A stretch of DNA of 64,000 nt from a virus (taxonomy: Duplodnaviria; Caudoviricetes). Below, one piece after another: positions 1 through 38,754 of the stretch; position 1 is the first letter of the stretch, and each line of letters opens with the position of its first letter. Below the pieces are notes generated by a model that worked only from the letters and a program-made list of their open reading frames with translations, searched no databases and was not told the origin of the DNA. Where the stretch lies: the IMG/VR virus record IMGVR_UViG_3300042318_000959, positions 5,802 to 69,801 of that record; one strand, given 5' to 3'. The translations under genes and the position numbers were made by a program.

Positions 1-2669
1 GTCTGCCCCATAACCATTTCTATGATTTGCTGAGCTTGTTCTTGTGGAATACCTGCTTCTACTAGTTGTTGTAATACTTGTTGAGGGTCTGCACCTTGTT
101 GTAACATAGTTGCAACTTCTTGTGTTATAGCTTGCATTTGATCACCACCTGCTTGTTGTGGTACTTCTCCTTGCTCTCCCATTTCAGATTGCATACCACC
201 TTCTTGGTAGTATGATTGCATAAAATTAGGAGCAAAATTAGTAGCTTTACCCCAAATATCTTCCATTTGCTGTTTGTTTAGTTTTTTATTGACTTTTGTA
301 TCAATAAAATCCATATCATCTTCTGGATAAGGTTGTTTATTTCTGTCAATATCATCTTGAAAAGCTGATTCCTCATATGCTTTTTTATAAATACCTTCTT
401 TGTACCACGTAGGGGATTTTTTATTAACTTTTACATCAATAAAATCCATATCTTCTGGGTAAGGTTGTTTATTTCTGTCAATATCATCTTTAAAATCTGA
501 CTCCTCGTATGCTTTTTTATATTTTCCTTCTTTGTACCACGTAGGGGATTTTTGTCCCCCTTCTTGGAAGAATCCTCCATTGCCAAAACCAAAACTTAGT
601 TGCCCAGTTTGTGCAGTTCCTTGTCCTAATCTTGGGGCTCCTTGTCCTAGTCTTAATACACCTTGTCCTAATTGTGCATTTTGGGCTCCAGCTGATAATT
701 CCGGTGTAAAATAATTTCTTAGTGGAGCTGCTCTACGGGCTGGACCAACTGCTGAACCTACTTTGTTCACTACTTGTAGGCCTTTACTTGTGGTCTGTGC
801 CAATCCTGGAACTTTTCCGGGCAAAGGTAAATATCTTACGTATTTAAGCTTGCCTAATGCTGGTGCTGCATCTAGTGCTTCTATAGCTGCCTTTTTATAT
901 TCTCCCTCTCCTGCATAATCTGCTGCATTACCTAAAGCATTTGCCCAATATAGTGGATTAGCTACACCTAAAACTTGATCATACGCATTCTTACTGTTTT
1001 TTGAAAATCCCTCTGCTGGTAGCTCTCCATATTTGGCGTAGTTACCAAGTGTTTGTACTGGATTAGCTAATCTTTCCCCAACTCTGCTTATCATAGTGCC
1101 GTCATCCGCAACTCCTATGTTTCCTTGGTTTCCGGAATACTTAGGCTTTCCTTTCATAGCATTCTGGAAGTCTTGGTATGTAAAATCTTTTGCTGTTTTA
1201 GCTGGTGTAACTTTTTTATCTGCTTTTCTAGGTGTAGACTTAGCCGGTGTTCCTGCTACTGGTTTAGATCTTAGATTTTCTTTTTTAAATCTTGGGTCAT
1301 TTAGCTCTGATAATAGTTTTGTATTGTCCTGGGCTGTTCCACTTGTATAGCCTAGTCTCTTAGCTTCTGCCCATGGCATACCTGTTTTTTGTTCCCAAGC
1401 ATCTCTAGCTGATGTAGATTTTTGGCTTGTTTGGTCTTTATTGTACATATCCATAAATGAAGCTGCTTGTTCGTCTGTCATTTCATTTGGATCACTATAT
1501 TCAGTTATTTGTTCTGAGTCATCGTATTCTCTATTCTGTGGTCCAAATACTGGATTTACTTCCATTATTGGCTCTACTTCTTCTTGCCCAGTTTTGTTTT
1601 TTAATTTACGTCTTTGCTCAGCAAATTGCGGATTTTTTAATGCCATATTTAGTGGTAATTCATCTCTATATGTACCTGCATCTTGAAAATATCCACCGTA
1701 TGCCAGGCTCTGCTCTCTTCCTTCCCCTGTCATAGTTTTGCGTTGGTCTTCTGCATAACCTTTCATAATCTGATTTTGCCTTTTTTGAGCACCCATTCCT
1801 TGTAAGAATGATTTTGTACCTTTTAGTGCTCCAAGAGCTGCTCCAGCTATACCCATTCCAGTATTACCTTTTGCAAACTGTTGCCCACTAAATCCAAGAG
1901 CATCTTCCATTCCCACATCTCCATAAGGATTGGCAAACTGAGTTATGCCAAACCCACCTGCATTTTCTCTTGCTGCTGCTCCTCCATCAGTTGTTAGTGG
2001 CTTTAGTTTTTCATCAGCCAAAGACATATTCATGTACTCCTTATTATAGTCAATTGGTTGTTTCAATTTTTCATCAGCTGTAGACATGCCCATATACATT
2101 TTATTGTAATCAGGTTTGGCAGTAGCTAAAGAGTTACTTTGTGGTTGTTGTGTTGGCGACTGTCCAAAATTAGTTTGCATACCTGCTGGGTTATTCTGAT
2201 ACCAGTTAGGTGTAGTTTGTCCAAAATTAGTTTGCATACCTGCTGGATTATTTTTGTACCATCCGGCATCTTGCATCATAGGAAGTTGTGTTCCCCCCAT
2301 CTCATGCTTCTGGTTCCACATAGAATAAGCTATTGCTATAGCTTGTTTTTGTGGTCGGCCTTCTCTCATTAAAATACCTATTTTTTCACTAATCCAATCG
2401 CTTTTTTGACCTCCGTCTTTATATGCTGGGACTTCTGCTACATAACTAGCTCCCCCAAATTTATATTCGTTGCCCGGCTCCATATATGTAGGATTGTCCA
2501 TAGCCATACCATTTTGGTCTAGGGGTTGTCCGTATACTGGGTAAGGAGTGTTCCTCATTGTTATATTCTCACTAGGTATGTAATTAATAGGGTTATTTTC
2601 AGAAGCGTATCCTGGAGTATAGCCTGTATTATTTACTAAATTCGATTTTTTCTTATACTTTCTCATCAT
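1..2669 (-). CDS. Large virion cargo/ejection-type protein, partial (runs off the left edge; >889 aa; absent from the ORF track)
   Basis: ATG at 2669 (MMRKYKKKSNLVNNTGYTPG...). The frame reads open to base 1 (...QQIIEMVMGQ). It contains modules ending in YKDGG, HEMGG, MQDAG, LAYGG, FQEGG and YQEGG, a KQAIAIAYS motif, a WAEAKRLGYTSGTAQDNTKLL motif and a Gln/Met-rich tail. It lies downstream of the muzzle gene, where crAss-like phages place cargo proteins. Confidence 0.8.
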   Translation of the reverse strand, partial: MMRKYKKKSNLVNNTGYTPGYASENNPINYIPSENITMRNTPYPVYGQPLDQNGMAMDNPTYMEPGNEYKFGGASYVAEVPAYKDGGQKSDWISEKIGILMREGRPQKQAIAIAYSMWNQKHEMGGTQLPMMQDAGWYKNNPAGMQTNFGQTTPNWYQNNPAGMQTNFGQSPTQQPQSNSLATAKPDYNKMYMGMSTADEKLKQPIDYNKEYMNMSLADEKLKPLTTDGGAAARENAGGFGITQFANPYGDVGMEDALGFSGQQFAKGNTGMGIAGAALGALKGTKSFLQGMGAQKRQNQIMKGYAEDQRKTMTGEGREQSLAYGGYFQDAGTYRDELPLNMALKNPQFAEQRRKLKNKTGQEEVEPIMEVNPVFGPQNREYDDSEQITEYSDPNEMTDEQAASFMDMYNKDQTSQKSTSARDAWEQKTGMPWAEAKRLGYTSGTAQDNTKLLSELNDPRFKKENLRSKPVAGTPAKSTPRKADKKVTPAKTAKDFTYQDFQNAMKGKPKYSGNQGNIGVADDGTMISRVGERLANPVQTLGNYAKYGELPAEGFSKNSKNAYDQVLGVANPLYWANALGNAADYAGEGEYKKAAIEALDAAPALGKLKYVRYLPLPGKVPGLAQTTSKGLQVVNKVGSAVGPARRAAPLRNYFTPELSAGAQNAQLGQGVLRLGQGAPRLGQGTAQTGQLSFGFGNGGFFQEGGQKSPTWYKEGKYKKAYEESDFKDDIDRNKQPYPEDMDFIDVKVNKKSPTWYKEGIYKKAYEESAFQDDIDRNKQPYPEDDMDFIDTKVNKKLNKQQMEDIWGKATNFAPNFMQSYYQEGGMQSEMGEQGEVPQQAGGDQMQAITQEVATMLQQGADPQQVLQQLVEAGIPQEQAQQIIEMVMGQ
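285..552. repeat. Tandem duplication of about 130 bp within the cargo CDS
   Basis: Two copies encode KSPTWYKEG.YKKAYEES.F.DDIDRNKQPYPED(D)MDFID.KVNK (44/45 aa). Confidence 0.9.
2160..2262. repeat. 57-bp tandem duplication within the cargo CDS
   Basis: Two copies of TGTCCAAAATTAGTTTGCATACCTGCTGG.TTATT encode WY.NNPAGMQTNFGQ. Confidence 0.9.
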
Positions 2670-2680
2670 TTTTTATAATA

Positions 2681-5293
2681 TTATTTTCTACTAAATAGTT
2701 TTTTTGCTAAGAAATTTGCATCTCTTTTTATTTTTGAATCTATTACCATAGTGGTATCTCCTTTTTTAAACCTGTCTGTCATATAATTTATGTCCGGCTT
2801 TCTACAGTTTACACAACCATAGCTTGCATATCTATTTTTTGCATCTTGTGCATATAGTGGATTCCTTTTCTCAAAATCATACGTAACATGTTGTGCAATG
2901 TCTTTAGCTCTGGCGGCTGGTTCCCCAAATGCTGCTACTGGCTGTAATCTAAACCCTGGTTGCCCGTATATATCACCCTTTGGGTTCATTGTATAAGTTC
3001 CTCTAGGTGTGGCTTTTGATTCTGGGTGTGTTTCTAGATAAGCAACCCCCCTATCATTTATGTTTACATCTGGATTTGCACCTGTAAGTACAGGAAATGA
3101 TTTTATAACTTTTCCATTTTCAAGTATGTAATTTGTATTTGTTCTTTTGTCTGTTACCACACCATTTTGTAATTTCATTTCATTACCTTGTGGTGAAAAG
3201 TCTCCTCTCATAACTTTTTCAAATAGGCTGATAACTTGATCTGCTTCTTTTATTTCTTTTTTTGCCTTTGCTACAGGGGCTTTTATTGTTTTTCTAGTTA
3301 CTGGTGGCTGTGTATTTTGCATACTGTTTTGCTCTTCTTGTGAGAATCCATTAAATTGCTTCATATCGCTTCGTTGTGAAGTTTTATTATTGTTATTTGC
3401 TATTGTAAAATTTTTATCTTTTAGTCGATTTAATAACTCTATGTTGGAACTAGCTGTCCCATCTGAATAGCCTAGTTTTTTAGCTTCTGCCCAAGATTTT
3501 CCTGTTCTCTTTACCCACCAATCTCTTGCTGAGTCATTGTCAAATTCTGAAAGTTCCCCACCATCTTCATATTTTTTCATTTCGTTATCTTTGCCACATT
3601 TATGACAGTTGTACATATCCTCTTTGCTAGAATCAGACTTGTTCCATGACCATCCACAGTTACTACATTTTACTTTTCCCTCTATTTCTCCTCCATCTTT
3701 ATAATATTGTCCTAATATATTCATAGACTCTTCATCTATTTTTCCTGAAAATGGGTGACTTTTTACTTTTTTTACATACTCATTTACTGTTGGGTTGTTT
3801 TTTATGACATTTTCTCTAAGGTCTACAACCCTTTTCCCATATAGTGGGTTCTTTCTCATATTTATGCCCTTTTTAGTTAGAGGCACTCCATATATTTTTT
3901 GCATGTTAAACCCATGATAGCCGCTTTCTGTTGTTGGGTATACATTACCTAACCCATTGTAAGCTTGTATTCTAGTAAGATCATCTTTTATGCCGAGTTT
4001 ATCTGCATATTTCATTTTATCTTTTATGGTTAGTACAAAGTACTCTTCTTCAGATTTTGCCCCAAGATCCTTTTCCGCCTGTGGCCCGGTAACGTGACCT
4101 ATGTTATCGTCAGTTTTACCTAATCCTGTCTCCTGTAATCCTATAGATACTGCAGTATATGGGTCAACTCCGTGTCTGTATGCTGCCTCAACTATTCTTC
4201 TTATTGTTGCGTCATCATAATAACCACTTTTTAGATCTGCGTTTGGGTTTATTGCTTTGCCTGTTGTGGCACTTATTTTTCTAAGGTCTTCAAATTTAAC
4301 TACCTTTCTTCCTCCAAGTTGGAATTGTGATGTGGTGTCTTCCCTATCTTCTAGGTTTGACATTTCCATAAATTTTTTATAATCAAATACAACATCTTGG
4401 TTTTCAAAGTCTTTAACCATTTGTTTAGCTATATTTGCTCTATTTTGTGGATCTTTTACTTGAGATAAAATATCTGCAATGCCATTAACCATTTCACGAT
4501 CATCATTTGTTTGACCACCATCTCTATACTGTTGCTCTTGTTGTTGCATCTGTTGAGGTGCTACATACTCTGGCAAAGCTATCTGAGGCATTTGATAATA
4601 CGCTTGATCTATTCCTGTATCTTGTTGTTGCTGTTGGTACTGTTCTTCTTGTTGCTGCCTTCTTTCAGAATCTTGCTCTTGTTGGTATTGCACTTCTGTC
4701 AAGAAATCCTTTTCTTTTTGTTTTTGTAGTAGCTCTGCTTTTGCTTTCTCTGCTTCTAAGTCTTCTTTACTGGCTATGTCTGGTGCTGTTTGATAGTCAC
4801 CGGTATTTATAGGTAAATTAAATGATGTATCTACTCCATAACCATAGTCATAGCCTTCAGTTGCAGAGGGTTTTATACTCATTTTCTTAGCTAACCAATT
4901 CTTTACAAAGCCTACAGTTTTTCCTTTTACAAAAGGGTTGTGAGCTATCTCTAATCTTGACATTACACTAGAGATAGGAGCATTATCTGCTGTCTGGTAT
5001 AAGTTTGCGTATCCTGCTGAACCTAAGAAATGTGCCCCGTATAAATCTGCATCTGTTGGATTTATCCCTAGTCTCTTTTTAAGATAGTTTGCATTATTTG
5101 TGGTTAATCTTAAAGCTGCCTCTTCTTGTAGTTGTGGATTATATATGTCTTTAAGATTATAGCCCATATTTTTCCAGGTGCTTGGTAAAAATTGATACCT
5201 GCCTGATGCCCCATGTGGGTTATGTGCTGAGTCATCACCTGAGCTTTCTGAGGCTCTAATTTTTGAAAGGTAGCTACTATAAGGATTTGACAT
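2681..5293 (-). CDS. Virion-associated multi-domain peptidoglycan enzyme (lysozyme-like + SLT transglycosylase + Zn ribbon + YkuD/L,D-transpeptidase-like)
   Basis: N-terminal ESSG...GRYQFLPSTW (lysozyme-like). Central AYRHGVDPYTAVSIGLQETGLG...AYNG (SLT). CSNC...CHKC ribbon. C-terminal FPVLTG...TPRGTY...H...SYGCVN (YkuD-like). Confidence 0.8.
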   Translation of the reverse strand: MSNPYSSYLSKIRASESSGDDSAHNPHGASGRYQFLPSTWKNMGYNLKDIYNPQLQEEAALRLTTNNANYLKKRLGINPTDADLYGAHFLGSAGYANLYQTADNAPISSVMSRLEIAHNPFVKGKTVGFVKNWLAKKMSIKPSATEGYDYGYGVDTSFNLPINTGDYQTAPDIASKEDLEAEKAKAELLQKQKEKDFLTEVQYQQEQDSERRQQQEEQYQQQQQDTGIDQAYYQMPQIALPEYVAPQQMQQQEQQYRDGGQTNDDREMVNGIADILSQVKDPQNRANIAKQMVKDFENQDVVFDYKKFMEMSNLEDREDTTSQFQLGGRKVVKFEDLRKISATTGKAINPNADLKSGYYDDATIRRIVEAAYRHGVDPYTAVSIGLQETGLGKTDDNIGHVTGPQAEKDLGAKSEEEYFVLTIKDKMKYADKLGIKDDLTRIQAYNGLGNVYPTTESGYHGFNMQKIYGVPLTKKGINMRKNPLYGKRVVDLRENVIKNNPTVNEYVKKVKSHPFSGKIDEESMNILGQYYKDGGEIEGKVKCSNCGWSWNKSDSSKEDMYNCHKCGKDNEMKKYEDGGELSEFDNDSARDWWVKRTGKSWAEAKKLGYSDGTASSNIELLNRLKDKNFTIANNNNKTSQRSDMKQFNGFSQEEQNSMQNTQPPVTRKTIKAPVAKAKKEIKEADQVISLFEKVMRGDFSPQGNEMKLQNGVVTDKRTNTNYILENGKVIKSFPVLTGANPDVNINDRGVAYLETHPESKATPRGTYTMNPKGDIYGQPGFRLQPVAAFGEPAARAKDIAQHVTYDFEKRNPLYAQDAKNRYASYGCVNCRKPDINYMTDRFKKGDTTMVIDSKIKRDANFLAKKLFSRK

Positions 5294-5329
5294 ATTTAAA
5301 AAAGTTAAACTTTTGCGTTATATTAGTGG

Positions 5330-5364
5330 CAAAATTAATAAAAATTATTGAGTTTACAAAATTA
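5330..5364 (-). promoter_or_regulatory. Bacteroidota sigma-A-type promoter, late variant
   Basis: TAATTTTG (5330-5337) with TTTG 19 nt upstream, the latter inside a second TTTAACTAATTTTG copy. Confidence 0.7.
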
Positions 5365-5365
5365 G

Positions 5366-6295
5366 TTAAATTTCTGACTCATTGAGAATAAACTTTAAAG
5401 CTATGCTATATCTACTATCTTTATCATATGTCAGCTTGTTTAAAAACCAGTCTCCCCCCATTCTTTCAAGTAAGGCTTTGCCTTTAAAACTCACGGCAGT
5501 GGAGTTAACAAATTTGTCTATTTGATTCTTATCTTGTAATAAAAAAGGTAGATTATTAGTGCTGCTTTTTACTCTATTGTAGAAGTAGTCATAATTCCAT
5601 TTAAAACCATCCGGGTTTGTAATCATAATATCTTGGGTATTATTTGTATTTGTTTTTGGATAATTTTTTGAATTCGCTATTTTTGTTTTTTCAGGTATTA
5701 GGTTTAAGTTACCAGAGCATACAATGTTATTGTATATCATAGACTTATTAAATGTTAACCCTATACTTGTTGAGTAATCATAATCATTGTGGTATCTTTT
5801 TGCTTCGGTCCAAATTTGAACATTATTCAAAGTCTTAGTCACAAACTCCTCCTTTACTGGGTACTCTACTATAAATGGTTGTTTTTTACCGTAGAATACT
5901 TGGTAGGATTTATTTGTAAGTAAATGTGACCATAGTCCAAACTCTGAGTAATCAGCTGTTGTATTTACTCCAGATTGGAAATAGTTATTGTGGTTTATGT
6001 AGTAGTTAGGTTTAAACCCGTAAAAACTCATCCAAGAACCCATTATTGGAGAGAAAGCTACTGTCCAAGAAACATCCTCAAAATCAGTTGGATTTATCTG
6101 TACTGGTACTACTATATTAGTGACTGTTGGGTCTACTGTATCTAAGCAATCACAATGTGCATTGCCACCAGGATCTAGTACTAGGGTACATCCTGGTGGA
6201 CATTTTACATTATTTTCTACTGTTATTTTTGTACAGATTACCGTGCCATTTACTGTTGACATTACATATTCTTCTGTTGGGCAACTACAATTCAT
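5366..6295 (-). CDS. Tail stabilization (muzzle) protein, separated C-terminal part
   Basis: SWTVAFSPIMGSWMSFYGFKPNYY resembles the C-terminal region of crAss-like/P22 gp10-like muzzle proteins. It starts 11 nt after the 2193-aa gene. Confidence 0.6.
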   Translation of the reverse strand: MNCSCPTEEYVMSTVNGTVICTKITVENNVKCPPGCTLVLDPGGNAHCDCLDTVDPTVTNIVVPVQINPTDFEDVSWTVAFSPIMGSWMSFYGFKPNYYINHNNYFQSGVNTTADYSEFGLWSHLLTNKSYQVFYGKKQPFIVEYPVKEEFVTKTLNNVQIWTEAKRYHNDYDYSTSIGLTFNKSMIYNNIVCSGNLNLIPEKTKIANSKNYPKTNTNNTQDIMITNPDGFKWNYDYFYNRVKSSTNNLPFLLQDKNQIDKFVNSTAVSFKGKALLERMGGDWFLNKLTYDKDSRYSIALKFILNESEI

Positions 6296-6306
6296 TTTTT
6301 ATTTTT

Positions 6307-9300
6307 TTATGATAACACTACTCCTGTACAAGGGTTGATTGTAAATGAGTTTAAGTTAGGACAAGCATTGTATACAGTCGATCCATTTCTTATAATTCTC
6401 ATGTGTGATGCAGAGGTGTGGCATCCACCAAGTCCAAATCCTTCATTATCAGTTATTGCTATGTTACAAGTTAGATTAAATGTTATGTTTCCGCCCACAG
6501 ATGCAGCTGCTATAGCTTGGGCTTGTGTAGTAGTTAGAGTAAACTCATTATATCTTGAAGATCCTCCTGTTGGTCCAACATTTCCTGCATCGTAAGTTCC
6601 TCCGGTATTACTAAGATGTGCTATTCCTACGTTTACTCCATTGGCATTAACTACAAAGTCTGCTGCATTACATCCGTGATTTCCTGTACAATCTGCAGCA
6701 TTTATATACTCTACTATTATTTTAAAATTTGCAAGACATTCTAGAATAGCTGCTTTTATATTCACTGTGTAATTTAGAGTATTAGTGCAACCATTTGGTG
6801 CTGTTGCTACTATGTTGTACACTGCTGTTCCATTGCCTGTTGCTGCTATTGTGTCTGTTATCGTTGTTCCTGTTCCTGAGTTTGTTCCTGTAACTCCTGC
6901 AGACGGTGTGACTGTCCATGAGAAAGTTGTACCTACAATATTACTACTTAGAGGTATAGCTATAGTATTGCCACTGTCTATGGTTTGTGGAGAAGTAGGT
7001 GTTGCAATTATATTTGGTACTGCGTTTACTGTAACTAATACGTCTTGTGGCTCTCCTTGACACCCACTTACTATTTCAAAAGGTCTTATTGTGTAAGTTA
7101 CTGTACCTTGTCCAGATAAGTTTTGTGATATAATATTGCTGCTTCCTGATGTAGCTCCAGTAACTCCTGATTGTGTAGCTGTCCATGAGTAGCCAATACC
7201 GGTTTCAGTGCTTGTTAGTGCTATACTTGTATTAGTGCCACTACAGATAGTTTGTGGACTTGCAAAAACATCTGCTGTACATATACATGTTGCATCTAGT
7301 GTATCTGTATAAGTACAAGTTTCTGTTAGTGGGTTATAAACCCAACCATCTAGACATAAATTTAATCCATTTGATTCTAGTTGACACACTCCATCCCCCA
7401 ATACATAGCCTGTTGGGCATGTTACTATTGGTTCTTCATCATCACATATAGTTTTGTCAATTACAAATCCTTTTCCTTCAACATACTGTATACAATCATT
7501 TTTGGGTATATAATCTCTCTTAGTTAATAAAACTCTTCTGTATCTACTATCCCATCCCATTGTAAGACCTAATCCATTATATGGATTATCTATATCTGTA
7601 TTTGGTATGTATTTTAGTATTTTAAATGGTAAGTGCTCTTTAAACCAGTTTCTCATTCCGCTGGATTTGTTACCTACCATAGAAGATATTTCTATCATTC
7701 CTTCTCCATTAGATGGTACCATCAATACTTGTCCTCTCTTTGCATCTGCAAAAAAGTGACCAAATTCATTTGATATAAATGCTGAATTTTGTGTTCCTCC
7801 ATATCCTAAATTAGTATTGTGAAAAGATGTCGATCTCCTTTGGAAGAAAGAGTTTCCTCCTAACAAAGATAACACTGGGCTAGACCCATCATCTATCTTA
7901 CTGTCAACCTTGTTATACAGTATTGATGTGTTAGCGAATCTTGCTAAGATAGCTTGTCCTTCAATGTCAATAATATCTTTTAATTTTCCAAAGTTTGTTT
8001 GGAATTCAAAAATATCTAGTGGTCTATATATTAGCCATGGGTCATATAGAGAGTTTTCAGTACTGTCTGGTAGACTTGCTATTATTCCATTTGGCATATC
8101 TTGTGTACACTCATTGAATGATCTTTCATAAGTGTCTGATAATGTTCTTTTTCTAGTTAGAGATATTTGCTTTGAATACTCTGAGTTATACAAAAATACA
8201 TTAGGCTCTCTAATAGAAACTGACTCTTCTTGTGTCCAAGTACCTAAATCACCTACTAATGGGTAAAAATTTCTACTCTGTTCTTTCCCTGCATATCTAT
8301 AATTAGTGTTAATCCTAGTTTCAGTTAAAAAATTAGTGATGCCATAGTAATAAAGATAAAACTTAGATGGTGGTAGAACATAGTTTCCAGATGATTTTAG
8401 GTTATCAAATGAGTATTTGCTATCAAGGTCTGGAAAAGCTTTTCCTCCATCTGAGAAGTCGTCCTCATTTTGTTCATAGCTGCAATAAAACTTTGGGTTT
8501 GTGCCAATGTTACTATAAAAAAAGTAATTAAACGGTGTTAGGTCTGCCTGTTTCATTGCTGTTACTAGGAACAATGGCATTTTTCTTTTAAGAGTGTGTC
8601 TTGAAATATAAGTATCCCCACCAAATATAGATAAGCATTGTGTCCCTATATTTTTCAAACTTCCAACATGCCCAGTTGACAACCACTTTATAGAATTAAT
8701 TGTTCCATATTGAGTTGGTAAGTAGTTCTTTATCGCTGCATATGGAGATGCAATATTTCTTATAACTTCTGGGCTACGTCCTTTAGTAACAAAACCTGCT
8801 TGTGATTGGTATGTAATGCTAGAGTCTGCCCCTTTATCATATGTTCTATAAAGTGGTCCAGAAGGAGTTGTTGTGCTTGGATAAGTTATTGGTTTATCCC
8901 CAAAAGATAATAATACTGACCTCTCTCTATCAATATTATTTATACTTAGTCTTTCCCCTGTTAATTCATTTGTAGTTACAAATCTACCATCATTCAAATA
9001 CTTTGCAATATGCAAGCCTCTTAGTTTATTTCCTTGTTCTTGTGCATTTGTTAAGTAGTTGTAATATCCATCTGCATAATAGTAGTAAGCAAAATTATGT
9101 GGGCTACCAAAGTCTCTGAATATCTTTAACCATTGGTATCTATATTGTCCTTGTTTATATATAATTCCCTCAGCAATCCCAAAAGCCGTAACTACCCCTG
9201 CTGCTATAAACGCTGGTAGTCCAAGACTTGCACCGAAAACCAGACCTCCCATACCCCAAACTTGAGCATTAGATGATATTTCAGCTGCTTTTATTATTAT

Positions 9301-12300
9301 TTCTCCTGCTACTTCTAGTGAGGCCAGTTTATTTGCTAAATTCCTTGCTTTAGAAGATAATATTACCCATTTAGGATGCCCTTTTACCTCATCAAAATGC
9401 CCTCTAGAATTCCCAAACATATAGCCTTGTACACTTAATTCAGACGGTAGTCCTTGTCTATAATAATCTGTTTCAGGTGAGTGGAAAGTATAATTTCTAT
9501 TTGAGGCTCCAAAAGTAACCCCATTTTCTACATCTAAATTTTCATCACCATTCATTATATCATTCTGATAACTATTAAATGGGTAATTTGAATAGTATAC
9601 TGTCTTTGCACCTTCTTTGTACTTTCTCATATCGTACAATAATCCTGATGCTACTATACTCCTATCTGTAGATATGTCTCCTCTAAATATTTCATAGTTG
9701 GAAATCTTATTCCTATCACTTTGTGTAATCAGACCATTTATTACGGCCACATCTAAAAATGTATTTATAAGGTTTTCATCTATTGTTACACCTAATGGGT
9801 ATATCACACTGCTACCAAATGGGCTTTGTTGCGAATTTGACATGAATGGTGCAATTTGATTATCTGGAAACTTGAAATGTCTTATTTTATTACATGTAAA
9901 ATTAGCATTATTATTTAATATATAGTTACCGTTTGCGGTGCTTTTTACAAAAGCTTCTTCAAATCTAAGTCTTGAGTCTTGTGGTATTAAGTTTATTGGG
10001 ACTACCAGTTTTCTTGAATCATATAATTCTGGATTATCTGGGTAAGTTTCTTCACTTTCCCAATAAGAAAATTCACCTTTTCTAAAAGGTACAGCATTAC
10101 AATTTTGCACTGTTGGTTGGTCAAATTCACATGATTTTACATATGTTATCTTTTTATCAAGTCTAATAGAATCCCAAGTTACTTCTATTCTGCTAAATTC
10201 AGTATCTCTCTTTGTAACTGTATAACATCCTTTACTTGGGGTAACTGCATATCTACTAATAAAGTCTTCATTCCACTCTATATCTTGATCAATATTATTT
10301 ATTAGTACTACTGGTGCTTCTACTGCAACATAATATTTTTTATTACTAAACCATCCGTTTGGAATATCTATAGATGCTCCTGCTGAGTTTGTTATTCTTA
10401 GTGTTGTTGGAGTTGCTGGATTTGTACTTTTTTCTAAAAGCCACATCCCACCAGAAGATAAATCTACTATTTGTGAATATATAGCTGTAGTATCAGAACA
10501 AGTTCTAAATATTGACATTCTTACTTTTGTACCCGATGGTAGAGCATCTTGGTACTGTGATATTTTTTGTTTGCTTATGTCAAGTACAAAGCTGGTTTTG
10601 CTATCTGTGTTTCCAAGAAACCAGAGTGCTCCTTTATGTATGTTTGTAAAAAAGTTATCTGGAGTGCTGGAAACAGCGGCTATTTTTGATGTGAAAAGAT
10701 CGCTTTGTGTACCACTAAAATAATAATTGTTAAAGTTAGCTGCATTTATATTATCTCCTGTATTTGTATAAGTTGTTATATCAACTGGAGCGGTGCAATC
10801 TTCATTTGCAAAATCTGAGTCTCTTAAATATACAGGTTTTGGAGCACCATCCGCAAAAAAGCTATCTGGTCTATTATAACCTAAAGGATTAGTTGGATCT
10901 TGTGCTGGGGTTCCTGTTGAGTTTGTTATTTTATGTATTGTACAATTTTTTGGTGCTCTCGCTGTAATGTATTCTGATGGAAATAGGCTACCAATTTTTC
11001 TTGTCACTTCGTTAGTTATCTCTCCTATAACTACCTCACTTACTTCAGAAATATCATCACACTCTGTTAGGCCTTCAAATACATTTACCGGACAAGTATT
11101 AGCTGAATAGTCTGCAGTTAATACCTGACAGATACCTGTATTTTCAAACTCATATGGGCAATTTTCTTTATTGTCTTCTATATGTTGAGCTAAGTCTATA
11201 TATTCTTCATTGTCTAACTCTATAAGTAATATTTTATTTAGCCCAGAAATACTAGCAACATTTTCTATTATACAAGTTTTTGTCAATTCTTCTGTAACCT
11301 TAACTGTTTGCATTTCAGATCCTTGGCATACTGGTACTTCACCAGGATATGCTGTGTTATAGAATTGCCATCTTTTATCTCTATTTGATGATGAACAAGA
11401 TTGTATATTCTTTATTATTGAATCCACATCATTACCAGACTTGCCTAAGTTATTCGCTACTGGCAATCCATTTACTATATTTACTAGTAAATCTAAGTCG
11501 CTAGATTTTGGCAGTCTTCCTATAAGAGGGAATATCGGTGTTTCATACCCACCCTCTAATAAAAATCTTATAGAAAATGGGACTACTTCATCTCTATTAT
11601 ACCCTAAAAATTTAGAGGAAAGAACTCCATTTTCATATAAGGTTTCTGATGCTATATGTGTTTGCCATTGCATAAACTGACCGAGTAAATTAATTACTGG
11701 CTGCAAGTTTATTTCTTTTTTTTGTGTAATCCCGTACTGGAATAATATGTTGTTTGAGGCTGTAAGACCTTCTACTTTTTCTATGTTTAGTTGATCAATC
11801 AACAGTTTATCAAAACTTGTCGTCACTTTATTTTGTTCTGTTGCGTAAACTACAGTGTTATCATTTATTGTATGTATTCCTTCAATAAAATATCTAGAAG
11901 CTCCTTCAATATCTGCTGTTTGTATTACTGCTACTTTGTAGTGAGAGTATGTTTTGTCAAGGTTAGATACTTCTAGTCTAATTGCTAGATTTGTTCTGCT
12001 TGCTAATTCTTTTTGCTCAAGTATTCTATTGTTCTTGTCAAATATTGCTATTGGATTTGTTATAGAATAATAAGGTGATATTTCATTTCCTGATGCATCT
12101 GAATAAGCAATTAAAAATTCATACATACCCATAGGAAGTCTACCACCTAATTCTATAGTAGCTGGTTCAATTTTTGGTATACTAAAAAGCTTAAATATTC
12201 TTAGTTCATCGTAGTTTATGCAAGTTGTTGTAATATTATCATCGCAAGATACATTTTGATCATTGTATCTACCTGCAAGTAATTCGGTAATATTTATATG

Positions 12301-12888
12301 TCTTGGTGGATTGTTGTTGTCAGAAAAATATATGTTTTTTCCACATTTCTCATTTTTTATTACAATCTTTTTTATGGGGTAGTTTATATCAAAATTAAAT
12401 CCGGATCCTGGGGTAAATGGTGTACATAGATTTGTATTTACATCAAGGTATCCATCTATATCTGTAAGTAATGTTGTATATGTTTGTAGGGGTGCTTGTG
12501 TTAAAGTCTCTAATGGATCTGACAGTTGGTTTACTTTATTACAGTTATCACAGTCTACTAATACATCTGATATATCATTTGTGTTTTGATTACTCTCTAT
12601 AACGCCAAATTCCCCTACGCTTGTAAGGGGATTTACTAAAAAGAAGAATGTAGAGTTTGAATCAATGTCGTTTTCAAATCCGATTACCCTAAAACCTGGC
12701 TTAAATTTAGAGGCTAAAATATTAGACTTCTCGTTTGTTAAGTTTAGGCTATTTCCAGATTCGTTTTCTATATTAGCATTAAAGGCATGTGTGTATTCAG
12801 CATCTGTTAATTGTGATGGATGTGTATCCTTCACCATTCCTGTCTTAGCAGAACTTAAATTTATTTTTTTATTCTGTTCTTGTGCCAT
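6307..12888 (-). CDS. Tail stabilization/muzzle protein (crAss-like, P22 gp10-like) with C-terminal PKD/Ig-like repeats
   Basis: 2193 aa. GMVKDTHPSQL...Y..A.NA start, F...ETYP and GGDTYISR-type blocks, and DAKRGQV...GLTMGWDSRYRRVLLTKRD. Ends with two QTI.SG...YSWT PKD-like units. Follows the ring-protein genes. Confidence 0.8.
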   Translation of the reverse strand: MAQEQNKKINLSSAKTGMVKDTHPSQLTDAEYTHAFNANIENESGNSLNLTNEKSNILASKFKPGFRVIGFENDIDSNSTFFFLVNPLTSVGEFGVIESNQNTNDISDVLVDCDNCNKVNQLSDPLETLTQAPLQTYTTLLTDIDGYLDVNTNLCTPFTPGSGFNFDINYPIKKIVIKNEKCGKNIYFSDNNNPPRHINITELLAGRYNDQNVSCDDNITTTCINYDELRIFKLFSIPKIEPATIELGGRLPMGMYEFLIAYSDASGNEISPYYSITNPIAIFDKNNRILEQKELASRTNLAIRLEVSNLDKTYSHYKVAVIQTADIEGASRYFIEGIHTINDNTVVYATEQNKVTTSFDKLLIDQLNIEKVEGLTASNNILFQYGITQKKEINLQPVINLLGQFMQWQTHIASETLYENGVLSSKFLGYNRDEVVPFSIRFLLEGGYETPIFPLIGRLPKSSDLDLLVNIVNGLPVANNLGKSGNDVDSIIKNIQSCSSSNRDKRWQFYNTAYPGEVPVCQGSEMQTVKVTEELTKTCIIENVASISGLNKILLIELDNEEYIDLAQHIEDNKENCPYEFENTGICQVLTADYSANTCPVNVFEGLTECDDISEVSEVVIGEITNEVTRKIGSLFPSEYITARAPKNCTIHKITNSTGTPAQDPTNPLGYNRPDSFFADGAPKPVYLRDSDFANEDCTAPVDITTYTNTGDNINAANFNNYYFSGTQSDLFTSKIAAVSSTPDNFFTNIHKGALWFLGNTDSKTSFVLDISKQKISQYQDALPSGTKVRMSIFRTCSDTTAIYSQIVDLSSGGMWLLEKSTNPATPTTLRITNSAGASIDIPNGWFSNKKYYVAVEAPVVLINNIDQDIEWNEDFISRYAVTPSKGCYTVTKRDTEFSRIEVTWDSIRLDKKITYVKSCEFDQPTVQNCNAVPFRKGEFSYWESEETYPDNPELYDSRKLVVPINLIPQDSRLRFEEAFVKSTANGNYILNNNANFTCNKIRHFKFPDNQIAPFMSNSQQSPFGSSVIYPLGVTIDENLINTFLDVAVINGLITQSDRNKISNYEIFRGDISTDRSIVASGLLYDMRKYKEGAKTVYYSNYPFNSYQNDIMNGDENLDVENGVTFGASNRNYTFHSPETDYYRQGLPSELSVQGYMFGNSRGHFDEVKGHPKWVILSSKARNLANKLASLEVAGEIIIKAAEISSNAQVWGMGGLVFGASLGLPAFIAAGVVTAFGIAEGIIYKQGQYRYQWLKIFRDFGSPHNFAYYYYADGYYNYLTNAQEQGNKLRGLHIAKYLNDGRFVTTNELTGERLSINNIDRERSVLLSFGDKPITYPSTTTPSGPLYRTYDKGADSSITYQSQAGFVTKGRSPEVIRNIASPYAAIKNYLPTQYGTINSIKWLSTGHVGSLKNIGTQCLSIFGGDTYISRHTLKRKMPLFLVTAMKQADLTPFNYFFYSNIGTNPKFYCSYEQNEDDFSDGGKAFPDLDSKYSFDNLKSSGNYVLPPSKFYLYYYGITNFLTETRINTNYRYAGKEQSRNFYPLVGDLGTWTQEESVSIREPNVFLYNSEYSKQISLTRKRTLSDTYERSFNECTQDMPNGIIASLPDSTENSLYDPWLIYRPLDIFEFQTNFGKLKDIIDIEGQAILARFANTSILYNKVDSKIDDGSSPVLSLLGGNSFFQRRSTSFHNTNLGYGGTQNSAFISNEFGHFFADAKRGQVLMVPSNGEGMIEISSMVGNKSSGMRNWFKEHLPFKILKYIPNTDIDNPYNGLGLTMGWDSRYRRVLLTKRDYIPKNDCIQYVEGKGFVIDKTICDDEEPIVTCPTGYVLGDGVCQLESNGLNLCLDGWVYNPLTETCTYTDTLDATCICTADVFASPQTICSGTNTSIALTSTETGIGYSWTATQSGVTGATSGSSNIISQNLSGQGTVTYTIRPFEIVSGCQGEPQDVLVTVNAVPNIIATPTSPQTIDSGNTIAIPLSSNIVGTTFSWTVTPSAGVTGTNSGTGTTITDTIAATGNGTAVYNIVATAPNGCTNTLNYTVNIKAAILECLANFKIIVEYINAADCTGNHGCNAADFVVNANGVNVGIAHLSNTGGTYDAGNVGPTGGSSRYNEFTLTTTQAQAIAAASVGGNITFNLTCNIAITDNEGFGLGGCHTSASHMRIIRNGSTVYNACPNLNSFTINPCTGVVLS

Positions 12889-37614: not shown

Positions 37615-38754
37615 TTAATCGAAATTCAATGTTTCAAGAGCTGATATTGCTGATGTTTCCTCTTGTTTTGTTCTCGAAACTTTTGTAGTATCTTGTACAA
37701 TTTTAATCTTTTTAAGATTTTCTAGTTGTACATTTTTCTTAGTTTCTGATGTCACCCTCTTAATATAGGTATCTTTATCTAACATAAACTGGATAAGCTC
37801 TCTTGCTTTTTTTGGATCATTCATCCACTCTTCATATATGTTGTCAATCTCAAAAGATCCATTTTGGTCTTTCTTTGTAGCAACATCTACAAATTTTCTA
37901 GTCAAACTTTCTGAAACGCCCTCTGTTTTAAATTCTTGGGCTAGTCCTTTTCTATATTCTTTTATTCTTTCTTGCTCTTCTTTCTGATCTTCAATTAGCT
38001 CTTGTTCTTTATTTTCAAGACCTTTGTAGAATTGCTGTCTTTGATATTCTACTATTTTTTGTGCCTTAACATCTAGTGTTAAGTCCTTCTTAGACGCTTC
38101 TACTAATGCTCTTGCTTCTGAATTACTGTGGCCCATTACTTTTTGGTAGTACCACCCTAATACATCCGTGTTATGTGCGTCATTATCTTCATCGTATCCT
38201 TGGAAAGGCTCTTTTAATGAATCTGGATTTTCAAACAATGCTTTGGCTAACTCAAGATCTCCGCTTTTAACTATGTTGATAAGACGTTTTTTAACTTCGT
38301 CTAATCCATCAACTTCAACGTATTTAGACTTAAATTCTTCAGCCTTTTGATCTTTGATAGCTCTCTCTAAGTTTTTAAATGTGTCTTTATCCACATTATC
38401 CAGCTCTGAAAGTAGTTTTTCTGTGCCGTCTTCTGTTTCAATCAGTACGTCTTCCCATTCTCCAGAATCTAGCCTATCCTTAATAATATCAAAATAAACT
38501 GCATCTGTGTTATTGAAAGATATTTTTTCTTCCTTCTCTTCTTTTTTTGGAGTCTCTTTTTTCTCTGGTATAATAACTTTTTCTTCTTTTTCTAGATCTA
38601 AGTTATCTACCTTATCTTCATCCTCATTAGTATCTTCTGATAAATCAATGTCTACTTCTTCCTTCTTTGGATTTTCTCCGTCCTCTAGTGAAAAGTCATT
38701 GAATTCTAATAATTGTTCAAATGACAGTTCTTGTTGGTTTTGTTCTGTTTTCAT
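37615..38754 (-). CDS. Putative scaffolding protein
   Basis: Highly acidic and helical 379 aa between portal and MCP. Confidence 0.6.
   Translation of the reverse strand: MKTEQNQQELSFEQLLEFNDFSLEDGENPKKEEVDIDLSEDTNEDEDKVDNLDLEKEEKVIIPEKKETPKKEEKEEKISFNNTDAVYFDIIKDRLDSGEWEDVLIETEDGTEKLLSELDNVDKDTFKNLERAIKDQKAEEFKSKYVEVDGLDEVKKRLINIVKSGDLELAKALFENPDSLKEPFQGYDEDNDAHNTDVLGWYYQKVMGHSNSEARALVEASKKDLTLDVKAQKIVEYQRQQFYKGLENKEQELIEDQKEEQERIKEYRKGLAQEFKTEGVSESLTRKFVDVATKKDQNGSFEIDNIYEEWMNDPKKARELIQFMLDKDTYIKRVTSETKKNVQLENLKKIKIVQDTTKVSRTKQEETSAISALETLNFD

Follow-up and report, generated by a model that had tools for sequence, protein, structure and literature searches.

The stretch of DNA analysed here, a 64,000-nucleotide window covering positions 5802-69801 of the IMG/VR virus record IMGVR_UViG_3300042318_000959 (a contig of 69.8 kb), encodes on its minus strand two long neighbouring proteins in which a short peptide of the general form hydrophobic-x-x-Gly-Gly sits at the joints between modules. 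Strong purifying selection acts on this seam motif as a peptide. The motif is specific to joints and termini, most joints and many N-termini carrying it, and is probably a recognition element. Each of the two proteins is a string of small, independently folding modules exchanged freely among related phages and, together with a 642-amino-acid protein encoded beyond the window, they probably serve as cargo (ejection) proteins in a marine podophage of the crAss-like group, a relative of phi4:1/phi17:2. We consider it quite possible, at somewhat less than even probability, that the motif is a processing site at which the chains are cut after Gly-Gly.

A seam motif in two modular proteins

The first protein (870 amino acids (aa), P0001; 2681..5293, minus strand) was delimited from its open reading frame (ORF) and translation and examined with Pfam, AlphaFold (AF2) and Foldseek. 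It comprises at least six modules, running from a lysozyme-like lytic transglycosylase through a coiled coil, a helical unit, a second lytic transglycosylase, a Zn ribbon and a WAEAK unit to a YkuD domain. Pfam recognises YkuD (7e-11) and, weakly, SLT, while Foldseek matches the lytic transglycosylase fold to the phiKZ gp144 lytic transglycosylase; both domains had been proposed in a first-pass annotation of the window and are thereby confirmed. The second protein has 889 of its 1024 aa in the window (P0002; 3..2669, minus strand; ORF and AF2), the full-length chain being P0003 at L001:5396-8470. It has at least seven modules. A basic leader at the N-terminus is followed by a beta module and a small helical module; next come a Gly-rich hydrophobic stretch, a second copy of the WAEAK unit, two three-helix modules that are UBA-like and, at the C-terminus, another beta module. 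AlphaFold predicts folded islands at residues 29-81, 89-124, 421-456, 564-606, 842-891, 930-978 and 996-1023. Homologues of these proteins are mosaic, with CHAP, SET, LysM, DUF5754, DUF5872 and DUF3597 domains among their parts, and many have PF26555 as a precomputed annotation.

The structural models were built on homologue alignments and scored by the predicted local distance difference test (pLDDT), and the seams were also located from the ends of BLAST high-scoring segment pairs (HSPs). All four copies in the 870-aa protein lie in segments with pLDDT<50, 0-9 residues before the next folded element. YRDGG (residues 256-260; 4514..4528, minus strand, as are all the seams) is in segment 222-263, followed by a helix from 264, and 31 HSPs end in 260-269. 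FQLGG (324-328; 4310..4324), the least conserved of the four, comes at the end of segment 313-327 with a strand from 329, and 61 HSPs start in 320-339. YKDGG (531-535; 3689..3703) precedes the CxxC..CxxC ribbon within segment 516-538, and homologues have YQDGG, YEEGG or YVDGG at this site. Finally, YEDGG (575-579; 3557..3571) precedes the WAEAK unit within segment 557-586, and 81 HSPs start in 570-589.

The junction copies in the 1024-aa protein likewise occupy low-confidence stretches between folded islands, even where, as at YKDGG (residues 83-87; 2409..2423), the dip in pLDDT is only four residues long (84-87). This copy separates the N-terminal beta module from the small helical module, between a strand at 76-81 and a helix at 89-102, and in 50 sequences its G86 and G87 reach at least 90% conservation. 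HEMGG (122-126; 2292..2306), placed by alignment and AF2, ends the small helical module and is not found in free-standing copies of that module. Two seams are tandem. At LAYGG + YFQDAG (322-332; 1674..1706), where 38 HSPs end in 330-339, G325, G326 and Y327 are invariant in 50 homologues and the homologue consensus at the second copy is YQDGG; at FGNGG + FFQEGG (695-705; 555..587), in a low-pLDDT stretch, Q702, G704 and G705 are at least 90% conserved. YQEGG (821-825; 195..209) stands 17 residues before the first UBA-like module, with low pLDDT up to 840 and a helix from 842, and 102 HSPs start in 820-829. The full-length protein adds three copies to those in the window, LRRGG, YQEGG and MKSGG. 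The first-pass annotation had reported the motif at domain boundaries, which these low-pLDDT linkers at module edges bear out, and a check of ORFs and translations found the six positions it gave to be exact.

Local alignments of both proteins with their homologues start and stop at the motifs. Among approximately 68,000 internal HSP ends from an all-versus-all BLAST, 14% coincide exactly with the second Gly, and starts fall most often on the aromatic residue. Between 36 and 41% of HSP starts or ends lie no more than 6 residues from a motif, compared with 11% for random positions.

The motif is also strongly enriched. In its strict form, [YF].[DENQ]GG, it occurs five times in the 1024-aa protein, three times in the 870-aa protein, once in the 642-aa protein P0004 (at residue 21) and once in the muzzle protein, but in none of the other approximately 55 ORFs of the contig. 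Composition-preserving shuffles gave an expectation of 0.10 for the 870-aa protein (3 observed) and 0.28 for the 1024-aa protein (5 observed), and 0 of 5000 shuffles reached either count. The looser expression suggested in the first-pass annotation, [YFHML].{2}[GA]G, fared less well, being weakly enriched in the 870-aa protein (P about 0.02) and taking in LGSAG, MGIAG and LVEAG, which are not members. In complete phage phi4:1 (L002), whose gp040 has five copies, and in the related metagenomic contigs L004, L005 and L006, the motif is again limited to two or three genes after the muzzle gene, and its positions are kept between related phages, e.g., FAEGG at residue 20 of the third protein. Approximately 240 homologues from a large protein collection carry 3.85 copies per 1000 aa against 0.45 expected (about 8-fold), most commonly as YQEGG, YQDGG and YKDGG. 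The main form is Y-Q-[D/E]-G-G, beside a second form, [L/M]-[K/R]-x-G-G.

Across 50 aligned sequences, whose mean column identity is 32%, the Gly-Gly pairs are either invariant or conserved to at least 90%, and the aromatic, Gln/Lys and acidic positions of the motif are conserved as well. The first-pass annotation had staked its idea on conservation of the motif at boundaries in homologues, and this conservation is found. Since the Gly codon pairs vary between copies (GGT GGT, GGG GGA, GGA GGT and others), selection works at the level of the peptide, with no shared RNA word behind it. Within the 1024-aa protein, several of the copies sit in tandem internal duplications and are as such not independent of each other.

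The small helical module allowed the motif to be separated from the fold next to it. Its 34 residues between YKDGG and HEMGG were searched, with the motifs removed, against 1.84 billion representative proteins. Among the 61 matches, copies inside cargo-type proteins have the motif on both sides, whereas free-standing copies of 37-60 aa, and C-terminal copies in unrelated proteins, are without it. The motif is therefore not part of the fold, and the idea that it belongs to the module folds was ruled out by these free-standing copies of one module. Eight proteins that begin Met-x-module keep the downstream motif and have none upstream. Furthermore, 37 of 255 homologues begin with an N-terminal leader of 4-30 aa, often basic, followed by the motif.

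Gene order and further modules of the probable cargo proteins

The minus-strand genes run from the terminase and portal, through those for an acidic scaffold-like protein and the major capsid protein, to the lysis genes, fibres, ring protein 2 (PF25702) and ring protein 1 (PF24228). Ring protein 1 adjoins the muzzle homologue (2193 aa; 6307..12888, minus strand; phrog_37948, 1463 bits), ring protein 2 lying further upstream; after the muzzle come a 309-aa ORF, a piece that matches the muzzle C-terminus, and then the 870-, 1024- and 642-aa ORFs. On the whole contig, the 1024-aa protein extends beyond the window and is followed by the 642-aa protein and a 962-aa protein (P0005). This ring-muzzle-cargo order is that of crAss001 gp43-gp46, so that the position of a C1-type cargo protein, directly downstream of the muzzle, is occupied here; in crAss001 the genes of C1 and C2 likewise come straight after that of the muzzle.

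The probable identification as cargo draws on this gene order, with a muzzle gene directly upstream, on the phi4:1 counterparts gp040 and gp041, which are annotated as virion proteins from tandem mass spectrometry (MS/MS) and match the same PHROGs and Pfam domains, and on a shared PHROG built on phi4:1 gp040, which the 1024- and 642-aa proteins match jointly. The N-terminus of the 1024-aa protein also matches phrog_36695, ‘virion structural protein’, and some homologues (e.g., P0085) carry the Pfam domain crAss_CARG1. Neither megablast of window positions 1-6300 nor tblastn of the 1024-aa protein against the phage collection gave a match; relatives were found through the capsid protein instead, which is 47% identical to those of Cellulophaga phages phi4:1/phi17:2 and 38% identical to that of a gut crAss-like phage. 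Relatives have genomes or contigs of 122-146 kb (phi4:1, L004, L005).

Between the portal and capsid genes, the minus strand encodes a 379-aa protein (37615-38754) that is helical throughout and has an extremely acidic N-terminus. In the protein atlas, the named proteins closest to it are ones for scaffolding and capsid assembly, together with a Prp-protease cluster of low score, and its phi4:1 homologue is annotated without a virion mass-spectrometry note. It is probably a scaffold.

Several modules deserve description in their own right. The WAEAK unit, approximately 36 aa in three helices, is common to both window proteins (3422-3529, residues 589-624 of the 870-aa protein; 1302-1409, residues 421-456 of the 1024-aa protein) and follows the pattern SARD.W...TG..WAEAK.LGY..GT, several residues of which are invariant in 50 homologues; it is the most confident part of the 1024-aa model, with pLDDT above 90. 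In both proteins it is followed by a Lys/Pro/Thr-rich basic linker that has no Gly-Gly motif. Directly after the FFQEGG seam, the 1024-aa protein has a tandem repeat of approximately 44 residues (285-554; residues ~706-795), SPTWYKEG.YKKAYEES.F.DDIDRNKQPYPED..DFID.KVNKK, which AlphaFold predicts to be disordered. Its Gln/Glu-rich three-helix bundle occurs twice (3-146 and L001:5534-5947; residues 842-891 and 930-978), with weak UBA-like or RadC-N-like Pfam matches (E about 1e-3) and no JAB domain; because of these bundles, homologues are named ‘RadC’ or ‘CtsR’ in some databases.

The small helical module (2307-2408; residues 88-121 of the 1024-aa protein), with the pattern ..W[IV]S.KI..L..EG.PQ.QA.AIAYSM.., is widespread. 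It stands alone in proteins of 37-60 aa (phrog_2423) and forms the last ~30 residues of unrelated proteins of 250-330 aa, where KSKS comes before it and GRS+K after it. Further swappable modules are a SET methyltransferase (PF00856) or a CHAP papain-like amidase/peptidase (PF05257), found in P0044, P0057 and approximately 12 other homologues. Sequence searches of the PDB with the 1024- and 642-aa proteins returned chance matches only.

A possible processing site or uncut handle

In the processing-site reading, the motif would be a recognition peptide for a putative endopeptidase cutting after Gly-Gly, either in the head or after ejection. Such an enzyme might be phage-encoded in the missing half of the genome, reside in an unannotated giant virion protein or be supplied by the host, and its action would trim the short basic leaders and free the modules. 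Information in the motif is concentrated in P5-P1, while P1' prefers Glu (4.4x) and Met (5.4x), with Ala, Leu, Arg and Gly depleted. Each joint has a single site or a single tandem pair, placed just ahead of the module that follows. Viral papain-like proteases usually cleave behind a Gly-Gly that has a hydrophobic residue upstream of it, and an N-terminal leader followed by the motif fits trimming. The fuller proposal is that crAss-like cargo proteins are true polyproteins, from which a dedicated endopeptidase (phage or host), cutting after hydrophobic-x-x-Gly-Gly, would strip basic targeting leaders and release changeable small effectors and cell-wall enzymes, in a maturation distinct from that by the Glu-directed T4/phiKZ prohead proteases; this we regard as possible but rather doubtful.

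Several observations weigh against cleavage. Two joints of the 870-aa protein, lysozyme-coiled coil and WAEAK unit-YkuD, have no motif, and the tandem double motifs suit avidity better than cleavage. The ejection proteins of T7 and N4 reportedly work uncut. Neither the seam motif nor cleavage of crassvirus cargo was described in the literature searched, a marine phage proteomics paper included. Nor was an enzyme found. Pfam and PHROGs scans of approximately 40 contig ORFs gave no protease beyond an M15 endolysin and a tail-fibre S74 chaperone, and no contig ORF contains HExxH; the first-pass annotation was thus right that the window holds no candidate protease. Peptidase_C48, C39, C5, Prok-JAB, S78 and S77 were absent from the contig, complete phi4:1 and the three related contigs, and the Ulp1/adenain-like protease that the annotation had proposed to look for elsewhere in the genome was not found in any of these five records. 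PF02902 and PF00770 had no match in them at E<=1, the contig being approximately 46% complete and most genes of this phage group unannotated, and PF03412 (C39) and the prohead proteases PF03420 and PF04586 were absent from the same five.

How far these absences reach depends on coverage. The contig is estimated by CheckV to be approximately 46% complete; about half of the genome, including the polymerase genes and any further virion proteins, is missing, and therefore absence claims for this phage are weak. The giant phi4:1 virion proteins gp035, gp038 and gp039 have no Pfam domains, which leaves room for an unrecognised protease. As a candidate enzyme, the 323-aa protein encoded after the capsid gene gave no lead, and the 379-aa protein was rejected because it looks like an acidic helical scaffold. 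An HExxH module is present in only 14 of 256 homologues. phi4:1 gp041 (L002:11751-13970), the counterpart of the lysozyme-bearing cargo protein, has two tandem HExxH zincin-like motifs that Pfam does not recognise. For part of the group, the HExxH module is a candidate for a processing or cell-wall peptidase.

Among the closest known systems is C1 (gp45) of Bacteroides phage crAss001 (NC_049977). Its resolved segments, a tail-bound helix (214-245) and a portal-bound domain (425-552), lie on either side of the portal (PMC10172136). The C1 gene, like those described here, follows the muzzle gene, and its product has a basic N-terminal leader followed by F-x-x-G-G, a Gly-rich hydrophobic stretch and a long, mostly disordered chain with small ordered islands. 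Aromatic-Gly-Gly motifs flank the two islands of C1, with SAYGG (206-210) before the helix and FAEGG (260-264) after it, and FAYGG (559-563) after the domain; NAFGG (424-428), in which the aromatic residue immediately precedes Gly-Gly, belongs to another class. In contrast, the proteins here have no detectable sequence similarity to gp45 and contain many more modules, including three peptidoglycan enzymes. The 870-, 1024- and 642-aa proteins had no match to PF25725 (crAss_CARG1) at E<=0.1, and residues 67-138 of the 642-aa protein align with the CARG1 region of P0085 only at E=0.34. The equivalent of C1 seems to be split over two genes here. The C1 paper makes no mention of the motif (PMC10172136).

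The motifs flanking the resolved segments count in favour of a processing site; other features of C1 tell against cutting. Bayfield et al. (2023, PMC10172136) interpreted C1 as a single chain through the portal and did not mention processing, a reading that accounts well for the presence of its N-terminal part in the tail at the same 12-fold copy number. NAFGG is not cut, since it lies inside the continuously modelled segment 425-552. The suggestion of the first-pass annotation that these proteins are polyproteins cut at Gly-Gly has therefore fared unevenly: the motif is real, confined to cargo proteins, conserved and at module boundaries, but no matching protease is detectable in the contig, phi4:1 or the three related contigs, and crAss001 C1 is described as one chain.

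The gels of crAss001 particles were also revisited, by re-using the matrix-assisted laser desorption/ionisation (MALDI) peak lists of the 2018 crAss001 paper for peptide-mass fingerprinting; the 54, 35 and 15 kDa bands, where fragments of gp45, predicted at about 25, 33 and 30 kDa, would run, are outside these data. Bands 1-9 were assigned to gp44, gp50 + gp47, gp49, gp20, gp26 + gp22, gp22 + gp25, gp25 and gp23. Full-length gp45 (90.8 kDa) was at chance level in the 70-100 kDa bands; the ~100 kDa band, whose spectrum is poor, gave 4 matches where shuffled sequences gave 4.1 +/- 2.1, and in the text of the 2018 paper gp45 is not among the named gel-identified proteins. As support for cleavage, the chance-level fingerprint is weak. 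The two top bands (>300 kDa) were assigned to the muzzle gp44 (1371 aa, about 150 kDa); a protein of ~150 kDa in bands above 300 kDa suggests that gp44 forms oligomers resistant to sodium dodecyl sulphate.

The motif may instead be a docking or threading tag of the cargo chains that is never cleaved, to which we assign a probability clearly short of even; the first-pass annotation had itself offered a repeated packaging or portal-binding tag as its alternative, and this remains a live rival. Such a tag could load cargo into the procapsid, e.g., against the very acidic scaffold-like protein. Alternatively, it could provide the thinnest and most flexible points where twelve chains pass the constrictions of portal and tail, so that modules leave as beads on a string. 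The single chain of C1, whose FAEGG at 260-264 lies between the tail-bound helix and the portal-bound domain, speaks for an uncut tag, as do the want of a protease in the contig and related records searched, the resemblance of the tandem double motifs and the N-terminal basic leader-motif to multivalent handles, and the acidic helical scaffold-like protein encoded between the portal and capsid genes. However, in the symmetric cryo-electron microscopy maps the C1 motifs are not among the ordered, bound parts while the adjoining modules are, a single site or tandem pair right before each module is the pattern of processing sites and not of scattered stickers, and the free-standing copies of the module do without the tag.

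That Gly-Gly acts as a passive hinge, decoupling modules mechanically while its flanking residues are an accident spread by shuffling, is improbable. The motif is always in predicted disordered linkers and Gly-Gly is the most flexible dipeptide, yet a hinge would tolerate Gly-Ser, Ser-Gly or Ala-Gly, whereas Gly-Gly is invariant or at least 90% conserved with its aromatic, Gln/Lys and acidic positions kept. Moreover, motifs occur 4-6 residues from an N-terminus, where there is nothing to hinge, and two joints manage without one. It is very unlikely that the motif has no function and reflects chance or composition, an RNA signal (Shine-Dalgarno-like GGAGG) or a fold end cap, for although the proteins are rich in Gly, Gln and Tyr and some Gly-Gly pairs are coded GGAGG, the shuffles, the varying Gly codons, the motif-free free-standing modules and the absence from ~55 ORFs all stand against it; an RNA-level signal in particular (GGAGG or a recombination word) is ruled out by the varying codon pairs.

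Relation to known systems and significance

Processing of packaged proteins is established in other tailed phages. T4 gp21 cuts after L/I-x-E and the phiKZ-like gp175 after S/A/G-x-E, and head-internal proteins are among those processed. In those systems, as here, proteins that are packaged and ejected bear short consensus motifs, frequently more than one in a chain, along with short N-terminal targeting leaders, which there are removed. The proteins described here differ in that P1 is Glu there and Gly-Gly stands here, in that no S77 or S78 protease is present, and in that the strict motif is absent from the capsid, portal and scaffold-like proteins.

Gly-Gly-directed processing is known from adenain, African swine fever virus pS273R, poxvirus I7, coronavirus PLpro, Ulp1 and deubiquitinases, and the C39 double-glycine leader peptidases. 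With these the seam motif has in common a hydrophobic residue a few positions upstream, and its [L/M]-[K/R]-[K/R]-G-G form resembles the ubiquitin tail; however, the hydrophobic residue is at P5 here and not P4, and C48, C5, C39 and JAB are undetected in the five related phage records. Leaders cut by C39 are of the LSxxELxxIxGG type, whereas those here are basic and end in aromatic-x-x-G-G.

A close precedent for the architecture is the polyvalent proteins of phages and conjugative elements. These large packaged or transferred proteins combine 2-15 effector and structural domains in shuffled arrangements, peptidoglycan hydrolases and Zn ribbons among them, and peptidases are predicted to process them into pieces (Iyer, Burroughs, Anand, de Souza, Aravind 2017, PMC5512222). 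Many unrelated, shuffled domains in one phage-borne polypeptide are found here too, with homology breaking at the seams. That paper describes no conserved joint motif, and its text has 0 occurrences of either ‘linker’ or ‘glycine’ (PMC5512222). An in-cis zincin-like metallopeptidase is the predicted processor of polyvalent proteins; here it is absent, HExxH being limited to the 14 of 256 homologues noted above. The first-pass annotation, which knew of no processed cargo polyprotein in tailed phages, therefore overstated the novelty, as both the T4/phiKZ processing and the polyvalent proteins precede it. The hydrophobic-x-x-Gly-Gly seam peptide itself appears to be new.

crAss-like phages are among the most abundant viruses of gut and sea, and cargo proteins make up ~5 MDa of the crassvirus particle (PMC10172136). 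For the loading, storage and expulsion of this cargo the seam peptide gives a concrete handle. It shows where modules can be exchanged or tagged, predicts the ends of the products if the chains are cut, and provides a signature by which cargo proteins can be recognised in metagenomic sequence when homology fails. If the motif is cut, there is a protease to be discovered in tailed phages whose Gly-Gly specificity is one known from eukaryotic viruses; if it is not, a docking or threading step during particle assembly is indicated.

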